Shown one piece after another: positions 1,733 through 25,222 of a DNA stretch of 64,000 nt. The translations under genes were made by a program, and so were the position numbers. Below the pieces are notes generated by a model that saw only the letters and a program-made list of their open reading frames with translations, ran no database searches and was not told the DNA's origin. The stretch is from Shigella phage SSE1. How positions within the stretch are numbered: position 1 is the stretch's first letter; each line of letters starts with the position of its first letter. Where the stretch lies: sequence record MK639187. One strand, given 5' to 3'.

Positions 1733-2206
1733 ATGTTATTATCAGGCGCAAAATATAAAGAAGAAAAACAAAAATTTTATGATGCACAGAATGGTAAGTG
1801 TCCTATTTGCCACCGTGAATTAGACCCTGATGTTCAAGGTAACCATCTTGACCACGACCATGAATTAAACGGGCCAAAAGCCGGTAGAGTTCGTGGATTA
1901 CTCTGTAATCTGTGCAACGCAGCAGAAGGCCAAATGAAGCATAAGTTCAACCGTTCCGGTCTTAAAGGACGTGATGTCGACTACCTCGAATGGCTTGAAG
2001 CTCTTCTTGCTTATTTGAAACAAGATTATTCTGATAATAATATCCATCCTAATTTTGTTCCAGACAAAACTAAAGAGTTCTCAAGACTAGGTAAAGAGGA
2101 AATGATGGCTGAGATGCTTCAAAGAGGATTTGAATATAATGAATCTGACACCAAAACACAATTAATAGCTTCATTTAAGAAGCAGCTTAGAAAGAGTTTA
2201 AAATGA
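1733..2206 (+). CDS. 49: Endonuclease VII, Holliday junction resolvase (gp49)
   Basis: 157 aa, CPIC...HLDHDHELNGPKAGRVRGLLCNLCN zinc/HNH-like core, recognised as T4 endo VII-like. Confidence 0.9.
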   Translation: MLLSGAKYKEEKQKFYDAQNGKCPICHRELDPDVQGNHLDHDHELNGPKAGRVRGLLCNLCNAAEGQMKHKFNRSGLKGRDVDYLEWLEALLAYLKQDYSDNNIHPNFVPDKTKEFSRLGKEEMMAEMLQRGFEYNESDTKTQLIASFKKQLRKSLK

Positions 2207-4020
2207 CAATTGAAAACGAAATTGAAGGATTGATTCATAAAACTAATAAAGACCTTTTAAACGAGAATGCTAATAAAGATTCTCGTGTTTTTCCAACTCA
2301 ACGTGACCTTATGGCTGGTATTGTATCTAAACACATTGCCAAAAATATGGTCGCGTCTTTTATTATGAAAGCACATGAAAGCGGAATTATTCATTTCCAT
2401 GATATTGATTATTCCCCTGCTCTTCCATTTACTAATTGTTGTTTAGTAGATTTAAAAGGAATGCTTGAGAACGGGTTTAAGCTCGGTAATGCGCAGATTG
2501 AAACTCCCAAATCAATCAGTGTTGCTACTGCAATTATGGCACAAATTACTGCGCAGGTTGCTTCCCATCAATATGGCGGAACGACTTTTGCTAATGTAGA
2601 TAAAGTACTTTCTCCTTATGTTAAACGTACCTATGCGAAACATATTGAGGACGCGGAAAAATGGCAAATCACTGATGCGTTGAATTACGCTCAATCTAAA
2701 ACAGAAAAAGACGTATATGATGCATTCCAAGCTTATGAATATGAAGTAAATACTCTCTTTAGTTCAAATGGTCAGACTCCTTTTGTGACAATTACATTTG
2801 GTACTGGAACTGACTGGACTGAACGAATGATTCAGAAAGCAATTCTGAAAAATCGTATTAAAGGTCTTGGTCGTGATGGGATAACTCCTATTTTCCCTAA
2901 ACTTGTTATGTTCATTGAAGAGGGTGTCAATCTTTATAAAGACGACCCGAACTATGATATTAAGCAGCTTGCTCTAGAGTGTGCAAGCAAAAGAATGTAT
3001 CCTGATATTATTTCAGTTAAGAACAATAAAGCTATCACTGGTTCATCTATTCCTGTTTCTCCAATGGGTTGCCGTAGTTTCTTGAGTGTATGGAAAGATT
3101 CGACTGGTAATGAAATTCTTGATGGACGCAATAATCTTGGTGTTGTAACACTGAATCTTCCTCGTATTGCATTAGATTCTTATATTGGAACACAGTTCAA
3201 TGAACAGAAATTTGCCGAATTGTTCAATGAGCGAATGGATTTATGTTTTGAAGCTTTGATGTGTAGAATTAGTTCCTTAAAAGGAGTTAAAGCGACTGTT
3301 GCTCCTATTCTTTACCAAGAAGGTGCATTCGGGGTTCGTCTTAAACCTGATGACGATATAATTGAGTTATTTAAAAACGGTAGAAGTTCAGTGTCCCTAG
3401 GATACATTGGTATTCACGAATTGAATATTCTTGTCGGTCGTGATATTGGACAAGAAATTTTAACTAAAATGAATGCTCATCTTAAACAGTGGACTGAAAG
3501 AACCGGTTTTGCTTTTAGTTTGTATTCTACACCTGCTGAAAACCTTTGTTATCGCTTCTGTAAACTTGATACTGAAAAATATGGAAGTGTAAAGGATGTT
3601 ACTGATAAAGGCTGGTACACTAATAGTTTCCATGTTTCAGTAGAAGAAAATATTACTCCGTTTGAAAAGATTTCTCGTGAAGCGCCATATCATTTCATTG
3701 CGACCGGTGGTCACATTTCTTATGTTGAACTTCCTGATATGAAAAATAACTTAAAAGGTCTTGAGGCTGTATGGGATTATGCCGCACAACATTTAGATTA
3801 TTTTGGTGTTAATATGCCAGTAGATAAATGTTTTACATGTGGAAGTACCCATGAAATGACTCCTACTGAAAACGGATTTGTTTGTTCAGTTTGCGGAGAA
3901 ACTGACCCTAAAAAGATGAACACAATAAGAAGAACTTGTGGTTATTTGGGAAATCCGAACGAACGCGGATTTAATCTCGGCAAAAATAAAGAAATCATGC
4001 ATAGGGTTAAACACCAATGA
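2203..4020 (+). CDS. nrdD: Anaerobic ribonucleoside-triphosphate reductase NrdD
   Basis: 605 aa, C-terminal CxxC zinc ribbon and glycyl radical region (RTCGYLG); single uninterrupted ORF. Confidence 0.95.
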   Translation: MTIENEIEGLIHKTNKDLLNENANKDSRVFPTQRDLMAGIVSKHIAKNMVASFIMKAHESGIIHFHDIDYSPALPFTNCCLVDLKGMLENGFKLGNAQIETPKSISVATAIMAQITAQVASHQYGGTTFANVDKVLSPYVKRTYAKHIEDAEKWQITDALNYAQSKTEKDVYDAFQAYEYEVNTLFSSNGQTPFVTITFGTGTDWTERMIQKAILKNRIKGLGRDGITPIFPKLVMFIEEGVNLYKDDPNYDIKQLALECASKRMYPDIISVKNNKAITGSSIPVSPMGCRSFLSVWKDSTGNEILDGRNNLGVVTLNLPRIALDSYIGTQFNEQKFAELFNERMDLCFEALMCRISSLKGVKATVAPILYQEGAFGVRLKPDDDIIELFKNGRSSVSLGYIGIHELNILVGRDIGQEILTKMNAHLKQWTERTGFAFSLYSTPAENLCYRFCKLDTEKYGSVKDVTDKGWYTNSFHVSVEENITPFEKISREAPYHFIATGGHISYVELPDMKNNLKGLEAVWDYAAQHLDYFGVNMPVDKCFTCGSTHEMTPTENGFVCSVCGETDPKKMNTIRRTCGYLGNPNERGFNLGKNKEIMHRVKHQ

Positions 4021-4487
4021 ATTATGATAGATTTTATCCTTGCGATTTTGTGAATGGCCCTGGTTGCAGGGTCGTTCTTTTCGTTACGGGTTGTTTGCAT
4101 AAATGCGAAGGGTGTTATAATAAATCAACATGGAATGCTAGAAATGGTATTCCATTCACTGGTGAAACACTAGAACAATTGATTGAATGTTTGAATAATG
4201 ATTATATAGAAGGATTAACTATAACCGGAGGAGACCCTCTCTATCCTGATAACCGAGATGTTATTCATCGCATTGCTCAAACAGTAAAAAATCTTTATCC
4301 CAATAAAAGCATTTGGTTGTGGACAGGATATAAGTTTGAAGATATTAAACAACTAGAAATGCTTAAATATGTTGATGTTATTATTGATGGGAAGTATGAG
4401 AAAAATCTTCCGACTAAAAAGCTGTGGCGAGGATCAGATAATCAGCGACTTTGGTCAAATACCGATGGGGTGTGGAAACATGATTAA
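4017..4487 (+). CDS. nrdG: Anaerobic RNR activating radical-SAM protein NrdG
   Basis: 156 aa, CLHKCEGC radical SAM cluster motif; start overlaps nrdD stop. Confidence 0.9.
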   Translation: MNYDRFYPCDFVNGPGCRVVLFVTGCLHKCEGCYNKSTWNARNGIPFTGETLEQLIECLNNDYIEGLTITGGDPLYPDNRDVIHRIAQTVKNLYPNKSIWLWTGYKFEDIKQLEMLKYVDVIIDGKYEKNLPTKKLWRGSDNQRLWSNTDGVWKHD

Positions 4488-4815: not shown

Positions 4816-5133
4816 ATGATTAGTTTTGAGCGGTATGTGGTAGAGAGTTGGAAAGGTTTTGATATGTTCGGTAATGACTATTATTTTTACGAATGTAATC
4901 TAAATCCTAGTTTTTGGGCTGGACGTGAACGAGATCTCGAAGAAATTAATGCTCGTGCCGAATTGTTAGGTGAACTGCCTACAGTTTATTTTACCTTTGA
5001 TGAATCTGGATTTGTTATCCAGGTTTATTTTCCTGAAGAAAACTCTGGCGAGGATTCTGTTAATCCTCCTTATTGGGCTTACCAAGGAATTATTTCTCGT
5101 GGAACAAAACTCGAACTTAAAGAACAAGATTGA
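4816..5133 (+). CDS. Hypothetical protein
   Basis: 105-aa ORF. Confidence 0.5.
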   Translation: MISFERYVVESWKGFDMFGNDYYFYECNLNPSFWAGRERDLEEINARAELLGELPTVYFTFDESGFVIQVYFPEENSGEDSVNPPYWAYQGIISRGTKLELKEQD

Positions 5134-5422
5134 AATTTATGGCATCCCTGAAGAAGTAGGACGTTGTCCAGGATGTTATACTGTTACAAAACTTTTAAAG
5201 GAGCTCAATGCTCCTTATACATTTTATAAAGTCCTCACTAATAATGGTAAGATTGAATATGACCGTCCTTTAATCGTATCTCTTGCTAAACGTGCAGGAT
5301 TCACTTCACTTAATATTCGTTATCCTGTCATATTTTTAAATGATAAGAAACAAAAGAATATTGCAGAGTTTAAAAAGTCCTTGATTTCATTAGGATATGA
5401 CTCCGATATCATAGAAGATTGA
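5120..5422 (+). CDS. nrdH: Glutaredoxin-like protein (NrdH-like), start codon unresolved
   Basis: CPGCY redox motif in KIEIYGIPEEVGRCPGCYTV; no in-frame ATG near the conserved N-terminus; ORF-track ATG 4970 lies inside the preceding gene. Confidence 0.6.
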   Translation, partial: KNKIEIYGIPEEVGRCPGCYTVTKLLKELNAPYTFYKVLTNNGKIEYDRPLIVSLAKRAGFTSLNIRYPVIFLNDKKQKNIAEFKKSLISLGYDSDIIED

Positions 5423-5531
5423 CCAGGTGCCGCCTGGTCTTCTTTATCTCATTTCTAATATAATCCATTGGAATCTTCACTTCACTATCTCCTTGTGCCC
5501 CTCTCAAATCAAAAAATATTTTCATAAAACA

Positions 5532-8295: not shown

Positions 8296-8494
8296 CATCT
8301 CTAACTACTTAGAAGAACCTTTTGACGAAGCAATCCCTTATTTGGTAAAACTGTTGGGTCGTGAATTTAAAATTAATTTTGACATCGACCCTTTGAACCC
8401 ACATGACGTGTCATTTTCGATAAATGGGACTCCGGTTGAGTATGAGTTCTGTATTGAAGAGGATGGACGTTTTTATTTTAATTTAATGAGATAA
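8285..8494 (+). CDS. Hypothetical protein
   Basis: ATG 8285 overlapping gp55 stop. Confidence 0.4.
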
Positions 8495-8495
8495 T

Positions 8496-8819
8496 ATGAC
8501 TACCGAGATTATTGAAAATAAAGAAGCAGAAGATGCAGTAGCTAAAATGCTACAAGAAATCCAAAAGAAAAATGAAGCTGAAGCACGTAAAAAATCCGAA
8601 AAGATTCTTAAAAAGAATCGTTTTGAACTAAACCGTCTTTATGCTCATGCTCAAGAAGCAGCAATTCAAAACAACTTCGAAGCTTACGAATATGCTATTA
8701 AGAAATCTCGGGATATTCTACGACAACCATATAATGACAAGTTAATTAAAATCCAGTGGGTTACTACTCGTCAGGCTATTGAGGACATCATTAATGGCGC
8801 TAGTTCAAACAAAGTTTAA
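8496..8819 (+). CDS. Hypothetical protein
   Basis: 107-aa ORF. Confidence 0.5.
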   Translation: MTTEIIENKEAEDAVAKMLQEIQKKNEAEARKKSEKILKKNRFELNRLYAHAQEAAIQNNFEAYEYAIKKSRDILRQPYNDKLIKIQWVTTRQAIEDIINGASSNKV

Positions 8820-9000
8820 ACGATTGAAGCTGAACGCAGGGTTCACCCTTAAATTGGGAGGTCCTCTTTGTGTTAAAATCTCTGAAAAGGAATATCACGA
8901 CGGTTCTATTACAGAAATTTGTCCACCTATTGTAAAGGCAGACCCAAAACAACTCGTATGGGTTGATTCATTTCAAGTTAAGAAATGGTGGAAACGATGA
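8794..9000 (+). CDS. Hypothetical protein
   Basis: ATG 8794 after GAGGA. Confidence 0.4.
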   Translation: MALVQTKFKRLKLNAGFTLKLGGPLCVKISEKEYHDGSITEICPPIVKADPKQLVWVDSFQVKKWWKR

Positions 9001-9039
9001 GAGAAATCGATTTAGGTATTTTCTGAGAGGTGATTATGC

Positions 9040-9213
9040 ATGACGAACGACCTGACCTCTGAAAATTTCGATAAAATCCGTAAAGGCAAAGCAGAAAGAA
9101 TGAGACGTTTTAAAGAGTCTTATGATAAAGCTAAAGCCGAAGGAACTATTACATACAAGCCCATTCGATTTAAAAGTTCAAATGAGCCTCTGTATGGTGT
9201 ACTATGTGGATAG
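9040..9213 (+). CDS. Hypothetical small protein
   Basis: 57-aa ORF read by hand, followed by hairpin terminator. Confidence 0.35.
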   Translation: MTNDLTSENFDKIRKGKAERMRRFKESYDKAKAEGTITYKPIRFKSSNEPLYGVLCG

Positions 9214-9238
9214 GAACTCTTCGGAGTTCCTTTTTTGC
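9213..9238 (+). terminator. Intrinsic terminator (GGAACTC-TTCG-GAGTTCC, T6)
   Basis: Seen in sequence, upstream of gp47. Confidence 0.7.
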
Positions 9239-9282
9239 TTTATAAACGGATGATAGAATGAATTAACTAATGAGGAAATAAT

Positions 9283-10302
9283 ATGAAAATTTTGCACTTA
9301 GGCGACTTCCATATTGGAGTCAAACAAGACGACCCATGGGTTCAAGATATTCAACGTGATGGTATTCGTCAAGCAATTGAATACTCTAAGAAACACGGGA
9401 TTAAAACTTGGATTCAGTACGGTGATTGGTTTGACGTCCGTAAAGCAATAACACATCGTACAATGGAATTCAATCGTGAAATCGTTGATATGATTTCTAA
9501 AGCAGGCATTCACGTTCATGTCACGATAGGAAACCATGACATGGCGTTTAAGAATACAATAACACCTAACACTGTTTCTGAATTATTAACTCAATTTGAA
9601 AACTTTACTATTTACGAACATCCAACTACTGTAGATTTTGACGGATGTCTGATTGATATCGTTCCATGGATGTGCGAAGAAAATACAGGTGAAATCTTAG
9701 AGCACATCAAGACTTCTTCTGCCGCGTATTGTGTTGGGCACTGGGAACTGAATGGTTTTTATTTCTATAAAGGAATGAAGTCTCATGGGCTTGAACCTGA
9801 TTTCTTAAAGACCTATAAACAAGTCTGGTCCGGCCACTTCCACACAATCTCTGAAGCTGCTAACGTCAAATATATCGGGACACCATGGACCCTTACTGCA
9901 GGCGATGAGAACGACCCGCGCGGATTCTGGGTATTCGACACTGATGTTGAACGTATGGAATTTATTCCTAATGAAACAACATGGCATCGACGAATCACTT
10001 ATCCGTTTAAAGGCAAAATCAATTATTCTGATTATACTAATCTAGCCGTACGTGTTATAGTATCAGAAATTGATTCAGAGTTGACTAAGTTTGAATCTGA
10101 ACTTGAAAAAGTAGTTCACTCTCTTCGTATGGTTTCTAAAGTTGATAACAGTGTTGAATCTGATGACGACCAGGAAATCGAGATTAAATCACTTCAAGAT
10201 ATCATTAAAGAATATATTGACGCGATTCCAGATATCTCAGACGAAGACCGAGAAGCGCTGGTCAAATATTCCAACGAACTTTATATCGAGGCAACACAAT
10301 GA
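9283..10302 (+). CDS. 47: Recombination nuclease subunit gp47 (Mre11-like)
   Basis: 339 aa, calcineurin-like phosphoesterase motifs (GDFHIG, GNHD). Confidence 0.9.
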   Translation: MKILHLGDFHIGVKQDDPWVQDIQRDGIRQAIEYSKKHGIKTWIQYGDWFDVRKAITHRTMEFNREIVDMISKAGIHVHVTIGNHDMAFKNTITPNTVSELLTQFENFTIYEHPTTVDFDGCLIDIVPWMCEENTGEILEHIKTSSAAYCVGHWELNGFYFYKGMKSHGLEPDFLKTYKQVWSGHFHTISEAANVKYIGTPWTLTAGDENDPRGFWVFDTDVERMEFIPNETTWHRRITYPFKGKINYSDYTNLAVRVIVSEIDSELTKFESELEKVVHSLRMVSKVDNSVESDDDQEIEIKSLQDIIKEYIDAIPDISDEDREALVKYSNELYIEATQ

Positions 10303-18673: not shown

Positions 18674-19309
18674 ATGAAAACTACTCCTATTACTATCGCT
18701 ATTGACGCAATCATAAAACAAGCTTCTTCTTTGGCCGCTATGGCCAAAGTAATTAGTCAAAACCCTGCTCGTTATAATGCTATTCTAGAAACTCTTCGAC
18801 GCCCAGGGCTTAGTAATTATGAAAGCCGAGTAATTATTACAGGTGTTGGTAAGAATGCTAATATTGCAACTAAAGCTTCTGAGACATTTGCTTCACTCGG
18901 TATCCCGAGTATGTACTTGAACACCGGGCATTATTCTCACGGTGATGCAGGATTCATTGCGCCTAATGATGTGTTGATTCATATTAGTCGTTCTGGTAAA
19001 ACTGAAGAAATGATAGGCGTGGCTAAGCATCTTAAAATGATTCGTCCGAACGTCAAACAGATTCTGTTGCATTGTAACCCAGACATTCCACAAGAAAATG
19101 AAGCCCTTTTTGATTACTCTTTCTGTACAGGCATCGCAGTAGAGGTTGATGAGAATTCTCTGGCTCCGACTATGTCCACTACATTATTGTTAGCGCTTAT
19201 CGATACGTTTGCTATCAACCTTTCGTCTGAACGTGGATTTACCTCTAATGACTTCCTTAAGTTCCACCCTGGCGGTGCACTAGGTGCCATGTTACGAGGC
19301 GAACAATGA
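18674..19309 (+). CDS. SIS-domain sugar-phosphate isomerase, KdsD/KpsF (arabinose-5-phosphate isomerase) type, no CBS domains
   Basis: 211 aa; GVGKN, SRSGKTEE, APTMSTT, FHPGGALG motifs. Confidence 0.75.
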   Translation: MKTTPITIAIDAIIKQASSLAAMAKVISQNPARYNAILETLRRPGLSNYESRVIITGVGKNANIATKASETFASLGIPSMYLNTGHYSHGDAGFIAPNDVLIHISRSGKTEEMIGVAKHLKMIRPNVKQILLHCNPDIPQENEALFDYSFCTGIAVEVDENSLAPTMSTTLLLALIDTFAINLSSERGFTSNDFLKFHPGGALGAMLRGEQ

Positions 19310-19490: not shown

Positions 19491-21176
19491 ATGAAAAAAG
19501 CTGTTATTCTTGGTGCTGGACTGGCAACTCGTTTGTATCCAATAACGCATCATATTCCTAAGGTGCTTGTTAACTATAAACAAGACACTATTCTGAGCAA
19601 TTTGTATACAATTTATTCTGACCTTGGCGCAGATGAAATTATTGTAGTAGTTCATTCAAAATTTGCTGAAACTGTTCGAGCTTATTGTGAGCAAGAAGGG
19701 TTCAATGTGACTATTCGTACAGTTGATGAAGCGTATGGATCTGCTTATGCTCTTGCTAAATTACACAAAGATTTAGACGGCCATAATGTAATTGTTAACT
19801 GGTGTGATATTATTCCCGATTTTGGTTCATGGTCTTGGAATGTTAACGCAATCTATGTTAAGGGTAACGAATGTCGATATAATTTCGACGGTGAAAATAT
19901 CACTAACGTAGGTTCAACAGGTGGTAATGTTGTAGGAATTTATCAGTTCAAAGACTGGGAATTCTATATGGGTTCTACTGATGAGGAAATTCATGAATAC
20001 TGCAAAGGACGTGATTTCGTAGAATTCCTTTACAGCGGTGCATTCAATAAATCAGAGCTTATGAATCTAATTGATTTAGGTGATATGCCTAAACTTGAAA
20101 AAGCTCATGAAGTTCGTGAACTTAATCGTAGTTTTAATGCAGTTGAAATTGGTGAAGAAACTGTAACTAAATTCGCATTAACTGAACAAGGTCGAGCTCT
20201 TCAGAAAGATGAGATTTCATGGTATCTTAAAGTGAAATCAGATTCAGTTCCTCAGTTAGTTTCTGTTAATGAAAATAACTTTGAAATGGAACGCATTAAA
20301 GGTAAGCCGGCATTTGAATATATTAAATCCAAATCAAGCCTTGCTCGTCCACAAATTGTTGATGCAATTTTAGACGCACTGAAATTCAGCACAGACACTT
20401 ATTTTGTAAGTCCTGAAACTGTTCGTCGTGATTTCACTAAAGAATTCTATACTAAAGTTATTGATCGTTGTGAAAGTATTCAACCGTTGATTGATTCATT
20501 TGGTAAAATCACACATGTGAACTACACTAAGATTGGGCGTCTGAAGCCAATGCTGAAACAAGCTTTAGAACACCTTATTCGTTATCATAACCGTTCTCAG
20601 GGACAGTACTCTGTTATTCATGGTGACCCGAACTTCAGTAATACTATGATTACTGATAACGGCGAAGTCAAGTTTATCGACCCTCGTGGATATTTTGGCG
20701 AAACCAAAATTTACGGGCCAAAATTGTATGATGAAGCTAAAGTGCTTTATGCTGTTTCAGGTTATGATGAATTCAACGCTAATCCGACCTGGGGCCAGTT
20801 TACTATTGATGAAACAACTTGTAATGTGACTATTAACATCAATCCATTAGTTTACAAATATGGAAAGATGAGTTCGTTTAACGAGTATCATCATTTGGCA
20901 GTGGCAATTATCTGGATTGCATTAGGTGGTTATTTCAAGAATAATCCACTTAAAGCGGTAGCCGCATATTATAAAGGTATGGAACTTCTGACTAAGCAAT
21001 TACGTAACATGGGCCGTGTACTTCAGGACGGCTCTATTAGTTATGACGTAGCAGAACCTGTAACGGCTACTCTGATTACAAAAAATCCTGGTAAATGGGT
21101 ACTAACTGATAAAGAAACTGGTGTTTCCTATCGTCCAATCGGTGGCGATATCACTCATCAATGGGAACGAATCTAA
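19491..21176 (+). CDS. Bifunctional sugar-1-phosphate nucleotidyltransferase / anomeric sugar kinase
   Basis: 561 aa; N-terminal ILGAGLATRLYPITHHIPKVLV (NTP-transferase G-loop); C-terminal VIHGDPNFSN and IDPRG (APH/AmgK-type kinase). Confidence 0.7.
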   Translation: MKKAVILGAGLATRLYPITHHIPKVLVNYKQDTILSNLYTIYSDLGADEIIVVVHSKFAETVRAYCEQEGFNVTIRTVDEAYGSAYALAKLHKDLDGHNVIVNWCDIIPDFGSWSWNVNAIYVKGNECRYNFDGENITNVGSTGGNVVGIYQFKDWEFYMGSTDEEIHEYCKGRDFVEFLYSGAFNKSELMNLIDLGDMPKLEKAHEVRELNRSFNAVEIGEETVTKFALTEQGRALQKDEISWYLKVKSDSVPQLVSVNENNFEMERIKGKPAFEYIKSKSSLARPQIVDAILDALKFSTDTYFVSPETVRRDFTKEFYTKVIDRCESIQPLIDSFGKITHVNYTKIGRLKPMLKQALEHLIRYHNRSQGQYSVIHGDPNFSNTMITDNGEVKFIDPRGYFGETKIYGPKLYDEAKVLYAVSGYDEFNANPTWGQFTIDETTCNVTININPLVYKYGKMSSFNEYHHLAVAIIWIALGGYFKNNPLKAVAAYYKGMELLTKQLRNMGRVLQDGSISYDVAEPVTATLITKNPGKWVLTDKETGVSYRPIGGDITHQWERI

Positions 21177-21562
21177 TGCACCGTGTAGAAAACATGCTTA
21201 ATCTTTGTTTTGATGTCGACGATTGTATAACAGAGTGGAATAACAATCGTGATTACGTGAACTTCAAGCCAGACGTCGAAATGGTGACTGCCATTAATGC
21301 CCTGTATGATGCAGGGCATACCATAACGCTTTACACTGCTCGCGGTATGAAGTCAGTAGGTCCTGGTCGTATAGCAATTGACATTCTCCCAAGTCTGATT
21401 CAGAACTTGGCAAACATTGGCTTGAAGTACCATAATTTGCTAACACATAAACCAGTATATGATTGGATTATCGACGACAAAGCTATGCGTCCTGACGAAT
21501 TCAAAGCTCTTATGAATAAAGGCGAATTCGAAACATTTAAATCATATAAACCGAACCTATAA
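21176..21562 (+). CDS. HAD-like phosphatase (putative)
   Basis: 128 aa from ATG 21176 (TAATG overlap); FDVDD motif I-like, TLYTAR, IIDDK. Confidence 0.45.
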   Translation: MHRVENMLNLCFDVDDCITEWNNNRDYVNFKPDVEMVTAINALYDAGHTITLYTARGMKSVGPGRIAIDILPSLIQNLANIGLKYHNLLTHKPVYDWIIDDKAMRPDEFKALMNKGEFETFKSYKPNL

Positions 21563-21608: not shown

Positions 21609-22778
21609 ATGCAAAAAATGAATACTTTTAAAATCGGAACGAATTTTGATTTAGCTCTTCTTGATAAAATCGTAGAGCTCAATAAAACTTATCCTAATAG
21701 CTTGATAAACGAAGTATACGGCTCTACAAGAGAAATGGCTTTTGTAGCAGCCAGACCTGATTTTAGGCTTCCTGACGTTGACAAAAAGATGTTAGAAGAT
21801 TACGTTAAACGTTGTAACGAATTAGGTATTTGCTTTAACTATACACTCAACACGATAAATCCTGGTTCAAAAAGAGAACTAGTCGAGTGGAAGAAGAAAG
21901 CTATTCAGGATTATGTTCAGTATCTTTGGTCAATAGGCGTATGGCGTATTACTATCGCTAACCCTGTTGTTATGGAAATTGTTCGTGAAGTCAATAAAGA
22001 CATTGAGATTGAAGTTTCAACAATTCTACATGTCGATGCTGTAACTCAAATCAAATACTTACATGACCAATACAATATCAAAAAGGTCTGCTGTGGAATT
22101 CATAAGAACCGTTCAGTTTCTTTCCTGAAGCGTGCAGCAGAGTTTTGCAATAAGAACAATATAATATTTGAAGTTCTTGTAAATGAGTTCTGTTCTAATG
22201 CTGGTAAAGGGTATACAACACATTGTAGCTATCGTGACTCTTGCTATATTTTCCATAGTACTGATGTTACAGTAGATGATGCTAAATCCTTAAACGGATA
22301 TCCTATGCAGCACTGTATTAAAGCTCGTGATACAGACCCATTTAACTGGTTGAGAACTCGTTTTGTTCGTCCTCAAGATTTGAAACTTTATAATGATATT
22401 GGTATCACTCAATTCAAAGTTTCAGGACGTACAGGTAGCACAGACTACATTTTGAAAGTTCTTGAAGCTTATGCTTCTGAAAAATTTGAAGGTAATTTGT
22501 TGGAATTGTGGAAGCCTTTAGAGACCATTTTCACTCTTGAAAATGAGACCGAGTTTTCACATACGGTAAATATTGAAACCTCTTTGTTAGATGGCTTTTT
22601 AGAAAAAAGGTGGTTCAAACATCCAGATTTCGATTGTGCTAATGAAATCTGCGGGACGACGTGTACATATTGTGAAAGATATTATAAACGTCAGTTATCT
22701 AAAAATGGGTTATCAGAAAATTCTATATCTATTATTGATATAACTAACTCTGACGACGCTTTGAGGTACCCAGAATGA
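21609..22778 (+). CDS. Cys-rich protein of unknown function
   Basis: 389 aa; Cys clusters EFCSNAGKGYTTHCSYRDSC and CANEICGTTCTYCERY. Confidence 0.55.
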   Translation: MQKMNTFKIGTNFDLALLDKIVELNKTYPNSLINEVYGSTREMAFVAARPDFRLPDVDKKMLEDYVKRCNELGICFNYTLNTINPGSKRELVEWKKKAIQDYVQYLWSIGVWRITIANPVVMEIVREVNKDIEIEVSTILHVDAVTQIKYLHDQYNIKKVCCGIHKNRSVSFLKRAAEFCNKNNIIFEVLVNEFCSNAGKGYTTHCSYRDSCYIFHSTDVTVDDAKSLNGYPMQHCIKARDTDPFNWLRTRFVRPQDLKLYNDIGITQFKVSGRTGSTDYILKVLEAYASEKFEGNLLELWKPLETIFTLENETEFSHTVNIETSLLDGFLEKRWFKHPDFDCANEICGTTCTYCERYYKRQLSKNGLSENSISIIDITNSDDALRYPE

Positions 22779-22936
22779 TTTCTAGAAAAACTTTTAACCA
22801 CCAACTTAACGAAGAGATTTTGACTACGAAAATTAACAGCAACGAACAAATTCTTAAAAAGGCCCTTATGGGCCTGTTTGAAACTAAAGCGGCTAAAGTG
22901 ATTAAAGAAACCTGTTCAACTAGAATACTACGCTGA
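22775..22936 (+). CDS. Small ORF, possibly a frameshifted gene (continuation to 23015 in +1 frame)
   Basis: 53-aa ORF; downstream frame codes a protein-like tail but has no start codon. Confidence 0.3.
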   Translation: MISRKTFNHQLNEEILTTKINSNEQILKKALMGLFETKAAKVIKETCSTRILR

Positions 22937-23056
22937 TGCATTTCTTCATAGTGTTCTTGGAAGTATCGATGCTGAAGCTTTACGTTATATCAACATCGCT
23001 AAGAAATTCAAATAAGCTTTATGAATTGAGTATATAATAACTGTATTGAGGTAAAC

Positions 23057-23773
23057 ATGGGAAAACATAACACAATGAAATATATTAAAGCCGCAGATTT
23101 TCAATCCGCATTTAAAGTTGTCAATCGTGAAATTTTAGAAAACCCGGAATTCGTTACTGATTCTCGTATTGGACGTTGTAATGAAATTGGGTCTATGACA
23201 GTAGTTGTTGATACCCCTTCATCATTCAAAATGTCAGACCCACGTATTAATCGCATCTCTTATGAATATGCTGAAGATTTCTGGAAATTTATGATTTCTG
23301 GTGGTACTGATGCAGAAGAAGCATTTAAGGCATATCCTAACGTTGCTAAATTTATTTCTAAACCTAAATCAGATGCTTTGCCTGCGAACTTCAACACTTT
23401 CTATGGTCCACGAATTGCGGCCCAGTTACCAGCTCTTCTCAAAGAACTTAAAGAGAAACCTAATTCACGAAGAGTTGTGTTTCAAATTCTTGAAAGTTCA
23501 GATCAGGCTTTGCTTGATTCGGACGAAACACTTGAATATCCATGTACTGACTCAGTGACTTATTATATTCGTGATGGTAAGCTTTATACCCACTGTCATA
23601 TGCGTTCTCAGAACTGTGCTGTTGTTATGCAGTTGGATTTTTATCTCCAAGGAAAATTACTTCATTATATCGCTAACGAATGTGGTGTAGAAGTTGGTGA
23701 TTATACTCATACCATGGTAAGTGCCCATGTGTTTGAACGTGATTTTGATTATGTTAAAGGATTCCTTGACTAA
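23057..23773 (+). CDS. 42: dCMP hydroxymethylase gp42 (thymidylate synthase family)
   Basis: 238 aa; PNSRRVVFQ and YPCTDSV...HCHMRSQN align with the T4 gp42 pattern. Confidence 0.85.
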   Translation: MGKHNTMKYIKAADFQSAFKVVNREILENPEFVTDSRIGRCNEIGSMTVVVDTPSSFKMSDPRINRISYEYAEDFWKFMISGGTDAEEAFKAYPNVAKFISKPKSDALPANFNTFYGPRIAAQLPALLKELKEKPNSRRVVFQILESSDQALLDSDETLEYPCTDSVTYYIRDGKLYTHCHMRSQNCAVVMQLDFYLQGKLLHYIANECGVEVGDYTHTMVSAHVFERDFDYVKGFLD

Positions 23774-24672
23774 TGGCTATTTTCCGCGTACCTATCTTGA
23801 GTATGCGGTCTTATGAAACTGGACAGTATGCTATCCTTAAGGATGGCAACTTCCAACTTCATTTGCACCGTGCTAATCCAGGTGATGTGATTACATATCC
23901 ACGTAATGCATCTGATATTAAAGAATGCGAACGTCTTTTTCCAGAATTTAAGTTTGTTCCATTATGGTATAAAGATAACGCGTATAACACTCGTAAATAT
24001 TTCTGGTCTGAAAATGAATTTGTGGTTGATTCATTAATTGCTTATTATGATTGTGATTTTCTAATCACAGATATCACCGGATATGACGGCTCTTTTGATG
24101 TGGAATTCAATTTCAATATCACTGCAGATCCTAATAAACCACGTTTTTATATTGACGAATTCTTAAAAACTGATATGTTGTCGGTTAATCGTTCACTTCA
24201 AACTACTGTGTTGAATGAACGTCAAAAAGAAGTGCTGGTTAACGCAGGTGCAGATGGTAATAAGATTATCGTAACGCAGAAAGTTATACGTCCTTCCATC
24301 ATGCAGCGTCTTGTAGGTGATTTGGCTCCTATTCATCTAGATGGTATTTTTCATCCATTTCGAATTAGTGACCCGTGCTATCGTTTTGAACAAGTGGTTG
24401 AATGCGCAATTCAATTAGGTCAACCGCTTTATATAACTGATCCAAATAATAGTTTCGACAGAAATAAGTATCCTGAAGAAGCGCTGATTCGAATTTTTAA
24501 TCCAACTAAAACTGAGTACTATCAAATTCTTAAAGGACGTCCGAAGATTCAATATTTCGAAAATCCTGAAGAAGTATTCCATCCAGGTCTTGGCGAGTTC
24601 ATCTACTTTAACGCTTTAATTTCTTCGCCGTATAATATACCTAAATATGAAGATGTCGTAATCGAGGAATAA
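23773..24672 (+). CDS. Unknown protein in the beta-glucosyltransferase position
   Basis: 299 aa, start overlaps gp42 stop; no similarity to T4 beta-gt recognised. Confidence 0.55.
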   Translation: MAIFRVPILSMRSYETGQYAILKDGNFQLHLHRANPGDVITYPRNASDIKECERLFPEFKFVPLWYKDNAYNTRKYFWSENEFVVDSLIAYYDCDFLITDITGYDGSFDVEFNFNITADPNKPRFYIDEFLKTDMLSVNRSLQTTVLNERQKEVLVNAGADGNKIIVTQKVIRPSIMQRLVGDLAPIHLDGIFHPFRISDPCYRFEQVVECAIQLGQPLYITDPNNSFDRNKYPEEALIRIFNPTKTEYYQILKGRPKIQYFENPEEVFHPGLGEFIYFNALISSPYNIPKYEDVVIEE

Positions 24673-24673
24673 A

Positions 24674-25222
24674 ATGGCTAAAATTATTTTAGTAGATGGC
24701 CCGGATAATGCTGGTAAAACAACTTTCATTAATGACATAATGGAAATTAGTGAAAGATATGTAAAGATTGATTTCCCTAAACGAACAGTTGATGGACGTT
24801 TCGATGTTAAGTCTCGAAATGAAGTTGGCTGTTTCGAAACGATGTTGAATTATTTAGACCCTACTAAGATTTATCTGTTAGACCGTGGATATATTAGTAA
24901 CTGGGTTTATGGACGTATTCGACAAGATGCGGACTCGGTTCTTGACGTTTATGAACAGGATTATGTTCGTCTTTGCCAAAACCATGATGTGTTCACAATT
25001 ATTTTAACACGTAACGAAATGACTGAAAGTTTTGAAGACGACCTTATTACTTTGTCTTCGTTCGGTTTTAATACAGTCATTTCATATTTTGAAGAGTTTG
25101 CAATTCATAACGAAATCCAAACGTATCAATTACTTAATCATGATGGTGCTAACAAAGTTATAGGATTTAATGCAAGCGAACGTAATAATTTGATTACAGA
25201 AATTATCAAATGGGCTCGTTAA
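24674..25222 (+). CDS. P-loop kinase, thymidylate/deoxynucleoside kinase-like
   Basis: 182 aa; Walker A DGPDNAGKTT, DRGY motif. Confidence 0.55.
   Translation: MAKIILVDGPDNAGKTTFINDIMEISERYVKIDFPKRTVDGRFDVKSRNEVGCFETMLNYLDPTKIYLLDRGYISNWVYGRIRQDADSVLDVYEQDYVRLCQNHDVFTIILTRNEMTESFEDDLITLSSFGFNTVISYFEEFAIHNEIQTYQLLNHDGANKVIGFNASERNNLITEIIKWAR

Follow-up and report, generated by a model that had tools for sequence, protein, structure and literature searches.

A U32-family protein of Shigella phage SSE1 as a candidate prephenate-dependent, oxygen-independent dCMP hydroxylase

In a 64,000-nucleotide stretch of Shigella phage SSE1 DNA (record MK639187; hereafter, the window), an open reading frame (ORF) of 389 amino acids encodes a cysteine-rich protein of the peptidase-U32 family and lies within the gene cluster for arabinosylated 5-hydroxycytosine, the modified DNA base known from phage RB69. 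We propose, with a probability that we put at roughly 0.55, that this protein is a prephenate-dependent, O2-independent C5-hydroxylase of deoxycytidine monophosphate (dCMP) and the anaerobic counterpart or back-up of gp48, the flavin- and O2-dependent 5-hydroxy-dCMP synthase encoded in the same cluster. This analysis established the family membership and fold of the protein, the conservation of its cysteines, the purifying selection on its gene, the gene context, and the phyletic patterns. Although the protein family and the RB69 ortholog were already known, the role of a viral, prephenate-dependent hydroxylase of DNA precursors appears to be new.

All cytosine in RB69 DNA is replaced by arabinosylated 5-hydroxycytosine (Lee et al., NAR 2026, PMC13326640). 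According to that study, gp48 makes 5-hydroxy-dCMP with oxygen taken from O2, as determined by 18O2 labeling; it binds flavin mononucleotide (FMN) loosely and needs reduced flavin, and gp48 and a kinase suffice in Escherichia coli. The sugar branch, reported by He et al. and available to us as relayed by Lee et al., uses AfhE and AfhF to convert arabinose 5-phosphate (A5P) to UDP-arabinose (UDP-arabinofuranose), and Acinetobacter phages make mono- to tri-arabinosylated 5-hydroxycytosine (PMC13326640). The ortholog of our protein, RB69p050, appears there as a table entry only (“Sugar or heterocycle reductase,” with 5d88 as structural match), and the RlhA and TrhP pathways are treated as unrelated to the phage system (PMC13326640).

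RlhA and TrhP are themselves U32 proteins. RlhA (YdcP) is needed for 5-hydroxycytidine at C2501 of E. coli 23S rRNA (ho5C2501) and depends on prephenate and Fe-S biogenesis; C169, C176, and C-terminal cysteines are essential, and the E161A variant keeps only trace activity. TrhP is needed for the conversion of uridine to 5-hydroxyuridine in tRNA (ho5U34). UbiU and UbiV are needed for three ubiquinone ring hydroxylations that require prephenate, the proposed oxygen donor, and each holds a [4Fe-4S] cluster by means of conserved cysteines, C169 and C176 being ligands in UbiU (PMC6747719). All of these systems are O2 independent and prephenate requiring, the enzymes acting on RNA rely either on Fe-S biogenesis or on conserved cysteines, and E. 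coli has O2-dependent alternatives in TrhO (for TrhP) and UbiI, UbiH, and UbiF (for UbiU/UbiV). The product of RlhA offers a possible analogy, as 5-hydroxycytidine is hydroxylated on the same base and at the same ring position as the phage 5-hydroxycytosine.

The sole Pfam match of the phage protein is PF01136 (Peptidase_U32; residues 97 to 289, 42.4 bits against a gathering cutoff of 22.4, E = 6.4e-11). Structure prediction, proposed as a check in an earlier, sequence-only reading of this DNA, gave a confident TIM barrel of the U32 fold, with the U32 protein Mk0906 (5d88), the only solved member, as the best Protein Data Bank (PDB) match; a sequence search of the PDB gave no match at E values up to 1, which left fold comparison as the informative test. 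The best profile match was E. coli RlhA, with 85.5% probability over 202 columns. In the hhalign comparison, E193, C206, and C212, which are invariant in 110 to 121 homologs, pair with RlhA E161, C169, and C176; a MAFFT alignment pairs C195, not C206, with RlhA C169, so that the first ligand is ambiguous. The UbiU/UbiV profile match is weak, the NCBIfam UbiU model (NF047963) gives 19.3 bits against a cutoff of 440, and neither DUF3656 nor the RlhA family's long C-terminal region is present, as indicated by the Pfam scan and by lengths of 389 versus 653 amino acids. The protein is a divergent U32-family member, soluble and built of a single domain. Homology to an unrelated housekeeping enzyme was what the sequence-only reading had named as grounds for giving up its proposal; the homology found is to a hydroxylase family relevant to the pathway.

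That reading had singled out two cysteine clusters, and both strings are present, EFCSNAGKGYTTHCSYRDSC at residues 193 to 212 and CANEICGTTCTYCERY at residues 343 to 358. With 13 cysteines (3.3%, against a mean of 1.15% over 64 nonoverlapping ORFs), the protein ranks third in the window, where the most cysteine-rich ORF encodes the Fe-S activase NrdG. A search of a collection of 5.8 billion proteins returned 282 homologs, and conservation was scored over the best 120 plus the query (down to approximately 46% identity). Nine cysteines (C161, C195, C206, C212, C236, C343, C348, C352, and C355) are invariant in these 121 sequences, and C180 is kept in 118 of them; the clusters are not a chance pattern. 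The C-terminal site is also well ordered in the structure model (pLDDT of approximately 95). Metal or Fe-S binding, as the earlier reading had suggested, finds good support in homology to a family in which UbiU and UbiV hold cysteine-bound [4Fe-4S] clusters and in the alignment of two invariant cysteines and a glutamate with residues tested in RlhA. The spacing of C348, C352, and C355, with a tyrosine before the last cysteine, also fits a radical S-adenosylmethionine (SAM) motif; we rejected this assignment, as Radical_SAM gave no Pfam match, the motif is C-terminal, and the invariant fourth cysteine, C343, would complete the ligation.

Purifying selection on the U32 gene is strong. In comparisons with five other genera, pN is 0.11 to 0.13 while synonymous sites are saturated (pS of 0.70 to 0.78), the dN is the lowest among seven cluster genes in three of the five comparisons, and dN/dS is at most 0.07 where computable. 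Protein identity across genera stays at 82 to 89%, while that of AfhE, the glycosyltransferase, and the thymidylate-kinase-like (Tmk-like) kinase falls to 37 to 73%. In these phages, the gene is old and under tight constraint.

The recurrent partner of the U32 gene is a gene for chorismate mutase, which forms prephenate; it comes directly after U32 in most of the related phage genera. In Erwinia phage Virsaitis27, this enzyme is encoded by a gene that overlaps the U32 gene at its end (Pfam CM_2, E = 1.7e-11), and among the first 18 Straboviridae loci retrieved, 14 have a Pfam-confirmed mutase gene directly after the U32 gene, in phages of Pectobacterium, Enterobacter, Klebsiella, Yersinia, Serratia, Proteus, and Edwardsiella; Serratia phages LC53 and 92A1 carry both genes. 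Searched by tblastn against 50,697 phage records, the Virsaitis27 mutase matched only 54, all Straboviridae of Enterobacterales or Shewanella, and the annotated matches overlap or abut genes labeled “peptidase” or thymidylate synthase. In Shewanella phage Thanatos, where the cluster is rearranged (AfhE, HAD phosphatase, thymidylate synthase homolog, glycosyltransferase, Tmk-like kinase, U32, mutase), the U32-mutase pair is still adjacent. Among uncultivated phages with U32 proteins at 45 to 58% identity, the mutase adjoins U32 in all nine loci of one lineage. Other uncultivated phages carry a fusion of 3-deoxy-D-arabinoheptulosonate 7-phosphate (DAHP) synthase and chorismate mutase, enzymes of shikimate pathway entry and prephenate formation, beside U32, with both Pfam domains above threshold. 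Fusions were seen at 8411 to 9433 of locus L040, 9 to 971 of L042, 7302 to 8357 of L043, and 11085 to 12203 of L053, and a DAHP synthase alone was seen at 9145 to 9891 of L004; the domains were confirmed by Pfam for L040, L043, L053, and L004, and L042 was assigned by BLAST clustering only. In Virsaitis27 (locus L002), an inserted gene for a Seg-like homing endonuclease (4854 to 5492) separates the HAD phosphatase gene from the U32 gene.

As a rough estimate, about 6e4 cytosines per genome in a few hundred genomes would call for some 1e7 prephenate molecules per cell, comparable to the host flux into Phe plus Tyr. A demand that rivals this entire flux would explain why phages carry genes for prephenate supply.

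The distributions of the U32 protein and the O2-dependent synthase are also informative. U32-anchored loci were collected from IMG/VR (46), metagenome contigs (10), and GTDB genomes (18), their neighboring ORFs were clustered, and flanks of 8 to 10 kb on each side were scanned for the synthase motif. No gp48-type synthase (MRSQN signature) was found within these flanks in any of 39 non-Straboviridae loci from IMG/VR and metagenomes or in any of 16 loci from metagenome-assembled genomes (MAGs), with U32 at 24 to 58% identity. Neighbors in the 39 loci include a gp46:47-like glycosyltransferase (26 loci), an AfhE-like protein (16), a Tmk-like kinase (12), chorismate mutase or DAHP synthase (11), DnaE (11), A5P isomerase (9), dCMP deaminase (8), and dUTPase (8). 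A weak thymidylate synthase match in L030 was rejected as a hydroxylase, as it keeps RSGD and FN (D169 and N177) and is a canonical ThyA rather than the MRSQN type; L079 gave only a weak score with the thymidylate synthase hidden Markov model (HMM). Anchoring on the synthase (MRS[QE]N signature) gave 45 IMG/VR loci, of which 15, all from enterobacterial Straboviridae, have U32 and 30 do not, the latter coming from Dhakavirus, Acinetobacter phages, Pseudomonas phage PspYZU05, and diverse environmental phages. The two lists have no IMG/VR contig outside Straboviridae in common, and the two genes occur together, within the scanned flanks, only in enterobacterial and Shewanella Straboviridae. Two unrelated enzymes at the same position beside homologous partners are the pattern expected of analogous enzymes.

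Host range follows a related pattern. Matches to U32, none of them below 80% identity, are present in 221 phage records, and the named host genera (Escherichia, Klebsiella, Shigella, Serratia, Proteus, Yersinia, Enterobacter, Providencia, Edwardsiella, Pectobacterium, Kosakonia, and Shewanella) are all facultative anaerobes; 12 of the 221 records belong to seven further genus names. The synthase occurs in 373 records, including 57 from Acinetobacter and 20 from Rhizobium phages, and U32 is absent from both of these sets; in Acinetobacter phage DLP1, the order of A5P isomerase, AfhE, HAD phosphatase, synthase, glycosyltransferase, and Tmk-like kinase is identical, with U32 cleanly missing. The U32 matches from MAGs were binned with Phocaeicola, Tannerella, Oscillospiraceae, and Romboutsia, which are anaerobes, and with Erysipelotrichales and Gastranaerophilaceae.

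Some of the divergent loci have unusual neighbors. In four phage-like loci binned with anaerobes (L066, 5135 to 9098; L072, 5192 to 9086; L074, 4929 to 9086; L075, 3044 to 7137), a conserved block encoding phage protein GP88, a fusion of guanylate kinase and SAM-dependent methyltransferase, and a protein of 264 to 282 amino acids precedes U32; the block was identified by Pfam in L066, L074, and L075 and by matching ORF sizes in L072. Such an arrangement could reflect a hydroxylate-then-methylate route, for example, to a 5-methoxypyrimidine in DNA. In L010 (5777 to 14179), U32 is flanked by genes for Gly_transf_sug, a TAGT-family DNA glycosyltransferase, a dUTPase/DCD-family enzyme, and UDP-galactopyranose mutase, with no thymidylate synthase homolog detected, and this locus may encode a galactofuranosyl-hydroxypyrimidine system. 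In large phage contigs with DnaE (L003, 1448 to 9086; L008, 1 to 9083; one contig is of 466 kb), a dCMP deaminase gene directly precedes U32, and genes for a Tmk-like kinase and a uracil-DNA glycosylase family protein lie near, which hints that some U32 homologs act on dUMP rather than dCMP.

In the mechanism that we propose, the phage U32 enzyme would convert dCMP to 5-hydroxy-dCMP with oxygen from prephenate, and the product would then enter the known pathway of phosphorylation, incorporation into DNA, and arabinosylation on the 5-hydroxyl group. The two invariant four-cysteine sites would hold one active-site and one electron-relay [4Fe-4S] cluster. With this route, DNA could be modified during anoxic growth of the facultatively anaerobic host, for example, in the gut, and the phage is equipped to replicate anaerobically, since the window encodes NrdD and NrdG. 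We infer the substrate, oxygen donor, oxygen independence, and cluster type, as well as action at the nucleotide level, which is suggested by the small single-domain build, the recurrent deoxynucleoside monophosphate kinase, dCMP deaminase, and dUTPase neighbors, and the prereplicative logic of the pathway; postreplicative action on DNA cytosine is a possible alternative. By analogy, the pair of U32 protein and gp48 would parallel the host pairs of TrhP with TrhO and of UbiU/UbiV with UbiI, UbiH, and UbiF. We extend the proposal tentatively to the family at large: prephenate-using U32 Fe-S enzymes might hydroxylate pyrimidine deoxynucleotides without O2, as the sole source of the 5-hydroxyl group in many uncultivated phages of anaerobes (with glycosylated or possibly 5-methoxylated bases) and as a second, anaerobic route in enterobacterial T4-like phages, with the phage mutase or DAHP synthase supplying prephenate.

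Other roles for the protein can be weighed against the same evidence. It might carry out no hydroxylation itself and act as a redox helper that reduces the FMN of gp48-type enzymes or, in keeping with the label given to RB69p050 by Lee et al. (PMC13326640), as a “sugar or heterocycle reductase” acting on a pathway intermediate. The loosely held FMN of gp48 and its requirement for reduced flavin (PMC13326640), the two invariant cysteine sites, which suit an electron transfer protein, and the proximity of the two genes in Straboviridae are consistent with such help, which we nevertheless regard as unlikely: gp48 runs without U32 in Acinetobacter, Dhakavirus, and many environmental phages and needs only a kinase beside it in E. 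coli, while U32 homologs outside Straboviridae have no gp48-type enzyme within 8 to 10 kb. Further, no characterized U32 protein is a reductase, and the attached chorismate mutase and DAHP synthase genes would be left unexplained. The sequence-only reading suggested a tailoring enzyme of the sugar branch, such as an epimerase, or a transferase (a dehydratase or another modifier of nucleoside diphosphate-pentoses could be added), and placed the gene inside a sugar module. This placement holds on one side, where the gene adjoins those for A5P isomerase, the AfhE-like protein, and the HAD phosphatase, but on the other side lie the base modification genes for 5-hydroxy-dCMP synthase, DNA glycosyltransferase, and Tmk-like kinase. 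Although AfhE-like and A5P isomerase genes also recur near U32 in 16 and 9 of the 39 divergent loci, respectively, and BASEL phage AlbertHofmann is annotated with a “putative enzyme involved in UDP-arabinose biosynthesis,” we consider a sugar-tailoring role improbable. The route from A5P to UDP-arabinofuranose, as relayed, needs AfhE and AfhF only and leaves no vacancy, and Acinetobacter phages add one to three arabinoses without U32. Moreover, U32 also accompanies other sugar systems (TAGT with UDP-galactopyranose mutase), the kinase-methyltransferase fusion without sugar genes, or only dCMP deaminase, Tmk, and DnaE; its recurrent partner is chorismate mutase; and the protein has no Pfam similarity to epimerases or transferases.

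Hydroxylation of host or phage tRNA or rRNA, in the manner of TrhP or RlhA and with an effect on translation during infection, would agree with the best profile similarity (RlhA) and with the fact that the only U32 proteins with nucleic acid substrates act on RNA. We think it very improbable, as the extra domains of RlhA (DUF3656, in 653 amino acids) and TrhP are absent, the host already has both enzymes, a tRNA scan of the window found none, and in many unrelated phages the gene sits in DNA precursor and DNA glycosylation clusters with nucleotide kinases, dCMP deaminase, dUTPase, and DNA glycosyltransferases. A collagenase-like protease, finally, is what the GenBank, RefSeq, and PHROG annotations (“peptidase,” “putative protease”) would have it be, and the family name itself derives from the PrtC collagenase. 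This is hardly credible: U32 proteins have no known catalytic mechanism by which to cleave peptides, the characterized E. coli members are hydroxylation factors, and nine invariant cysteines, a chorismate mutase partner, and a DNA modification context have no rationale in a protease.

Several observations nonetheless weigh against a prephenate-dependent dCMP hydroxylase. The literature searched, which did not cover the study of HY126 by He et al. (2026) or that of Serratia phages LC53 and 92A1 by Mahler et al. (2025), holds no biochemical or genetic datum for the phage U32 protein or an ortholog, and as of 2024 the hydroxylase activity of any U32 protein had not been reconstituted in vitro (PMC10990095). 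In the same search, no paper connected U32 to arabinosyl DNA modification or to that of RB69, and none connected chorismate mutase to DNA modification in phages; the phage U32 protein goes unmentioned in the Thomas 2018, Thanatos 2025, and Durham 2026 papers. The canonical U32 pattern CX6CX15CX3/4C (PMC6747719) is not matched, the phage protein having CX10CX5CX23C plus the extra C-terminal site; it therefore belongs, by its sequence, to a distinct U32 subfamily whose first site is variant and which has a further four-cysteine site, and UbiV is likewise variant. Mutase or DAHP synthase genes lie within 3.5 kb in only 4 or 5 of 33 U32 lineages (clusters at 70% identity), and chorismate mutase is absent from the window and from all Mosigvirus, where an unrelated small ORF, frameshifted here, fills the slot and where the U32 enzyme would rely on host PheA and TyrA. 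Dhakavirus phages of E. coli have the synthase without U32, so that U32 is not required in every enterobacterial phage and a strict rule linking facultatively anaerobic hosts to U32 is ruled out. Lastly, few independent lineages underlie the correlations with host and habitat, which are supportive only.

The small ORF in that slot, ORF049c-like, was considered as a degraded chorismate mutase and rejected: it has no Pfam match, BLASTP gives E = 0.16, and an HMM of 25 neighboring mutases, run on every frame of the spacer between U32 and the synthase at four loci of Mosigvirus and Marfa, scores about 0 bits. One extra A breaks it into pieces of 53 and 33 amino acids (AAAGAAACC here versus AAAGAACC in RB69 and phiE142), and HY126 is annotated with just 40 amino acids at this spot. 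The slot looks variable or decaying in Mosigvirus.

The region around the U32 gene is 97.7 to 98.5% identical to RB69-like Mosigvirus phages, and the gene order is gp43 DNA polymerase, A5P isomerase, AfhE-like, AfhF-like, U32, small ORF, thymidylate synthase homolog, glycosyltransferase, Tmk-like kinase, and uvsX (Table 1). RB69ORF050c (gp50, NP_861740.1; “peptidase” in RefSeq) is the ortholog, 99.2% identical and with the same neighbors, and the protein belongs to the gp50 ortholog group PHROG 5757 by a full-length, high-identity, and syntenic match (E = 1e-266 over the whole protein). The start codon is ambiguous. A second ATG at 21618, which has a GAG 8 nucleotides upstream, better spaced than that for the first ATG at 21609, is where homologs and the HY126 annotation begin, and database lengths differ accordingly (389 amino acids in RB69 and 386 in HY126). 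The AfhE-like and glycosyltransferase genes are unbroken here, while each is in two parts in the RB69 reference (ORF052/053 and ORF046/047); the unbroken genes are in line with the attribution of the RB69 splits to sequencing errors by Lee et al. (PMC13326640). Between 18.5 and 25.4 kb, a scan for sigma-70 promoters and terminators gave 23 promoter-like sites against 26 expected and no plus-strand terminator between genes.

Table 1. Features of the U32 gene and its surroundings in the window
Feature	Position	Strand	Remarks
nrdD, anaerobic ribonucleotide reductase	2203-4020		
nrdG, anaerobic ribonucleotide reductase	4017-4487		
A5P isomerase, RB69 gp55 ortholog	18674-19309	+	NCBIfam KpsF/GutQ and KdsD matches
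AfhE-like bifunctional sugar kinase/nucleotidyltransferase, RB69 gp52:53	19491-21176	+	One intact ORF, 561 amino acids
AfhF-like HAD phosphatase, RB69 gp51	21161-21562	+	NCBIfam TIGR01689
U32-family ORF, ortholog of RB69 gp50 (RB69p050) and HY126 XAN60477.1	21609-22778	+	389 amino acids, uninterrupted
Codon of invariant C161	22089-22091	+	
Cysteine site A: E193, C195-x10-C206-x5-C212-x23-C236	22185-22316	+	U32 motif region; putative active-site [4Fe-4S] ligands
Cysteine site B: C343-x4-C348-x3-C352-x2-C355	22635-22673	+	Putative second [4Fe-4S] or Zn site
Small ORF049c-like gene, ATG overlapping U32 stop	22775-23037	+	PHROG 8601, function unassigned
Thymidylate synthase homolog, flavin/O2-dependent 5-hydroxy-dCMP synthase, RB69 gp48 ortholog	23057-23773	+	Pfam, orthology, MRSQN signature
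DNA arabinosyltransferase 1 candidate, RB69 gp46:47	23773-24672	+	One intact ORF, 299 amino acids
Tmk-like nucleotide kinase, RB69 gp45	24674-25222	+	

If the proposal is correct, it would fill a gap in the arabinosyl-5-hydroxycytosine pathway, whose only known hydroxylase needs O2 though the phages infect gut bacteria, and it would add DNA precursors to the RNA and quinone substrates of prephenate-dependent hydroxylation, the phage protein being the first U32 hydroxylase acting on such a precursor. It would also explain the presence of chorismate mutase and DAHP synthase genes in phages and predict that many uncultivated phages of anaerobes carry DNA bases derived from 5-hydroxypyrimidines, which would bear on how phages evade restriction and CRISPR and on phage therapy where oxygen is absent. 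A soluble, probably monomeric enzyme of 389 amino acids with the cheap substrate dCMP would further lend itself to the reconstitution of U32 chemistry. The hypothesis is directly testable with existing RB69 and HY126 genetics and liquid chromatography-mass spectrometry assays.

Compared with known systems, the phage protein resembles RlhA in its family, the aligned glutamate and two cysteines, the extra C-terminal cysteines, and the proposed C5-hydroxylation of cytosine. It differs from RlhA, a protein of 653 amino acids with DUF3656 whose substrate is a ribosomal assembly intermediate, in having 389 amino acids in a single barrel with a CX4CX3CX2C tail, approximately 22% identity, a 5- rather than 6-residue cysteine spacing, and, probably, a deoxynucleotide substrate. 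TrhP and TrhO provide the precedent for prephenate-dependent U32 and O2-dependent routes to one 5-hydroxypyrimidine in one organism, although their substrate is tRNA, TrhP is longer (453 amino acids), and the O2-dependent partner TrhO is a rhodanese-family protein rather than a thymidylate synthase homolog. UbiU and UbiV likewise are U32 proteins with four-cysteine [4Fe-4S] sites that act on a small molecule and back up the O2-dependent flavin monooxygenases UbiI, UbiH, and UbiF; they pair as a heterodimer in which each protein holds one cluster, whereas a single chain of the phage protein contains two four-cysteine sites. Mk0906 of Methanopyrus kandleri (5d88), whose function is not known, shares 14% identity and has 247 amino acids without the C-terminal cysteine site. 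RB69 gp50, labeled only “peptidase” or “Sugar or heterocycle reductase” in the literature searched, is the direct ortholog, and no functional difference from it is expected. The gp48/HY126 synthase, the proposed analog, shares the product, gene cluster, and downstream partners that we suggest for the U32 protein, but it belongs to the unrelated thymidylate synthase superfamily fold and uses FMN and O2.

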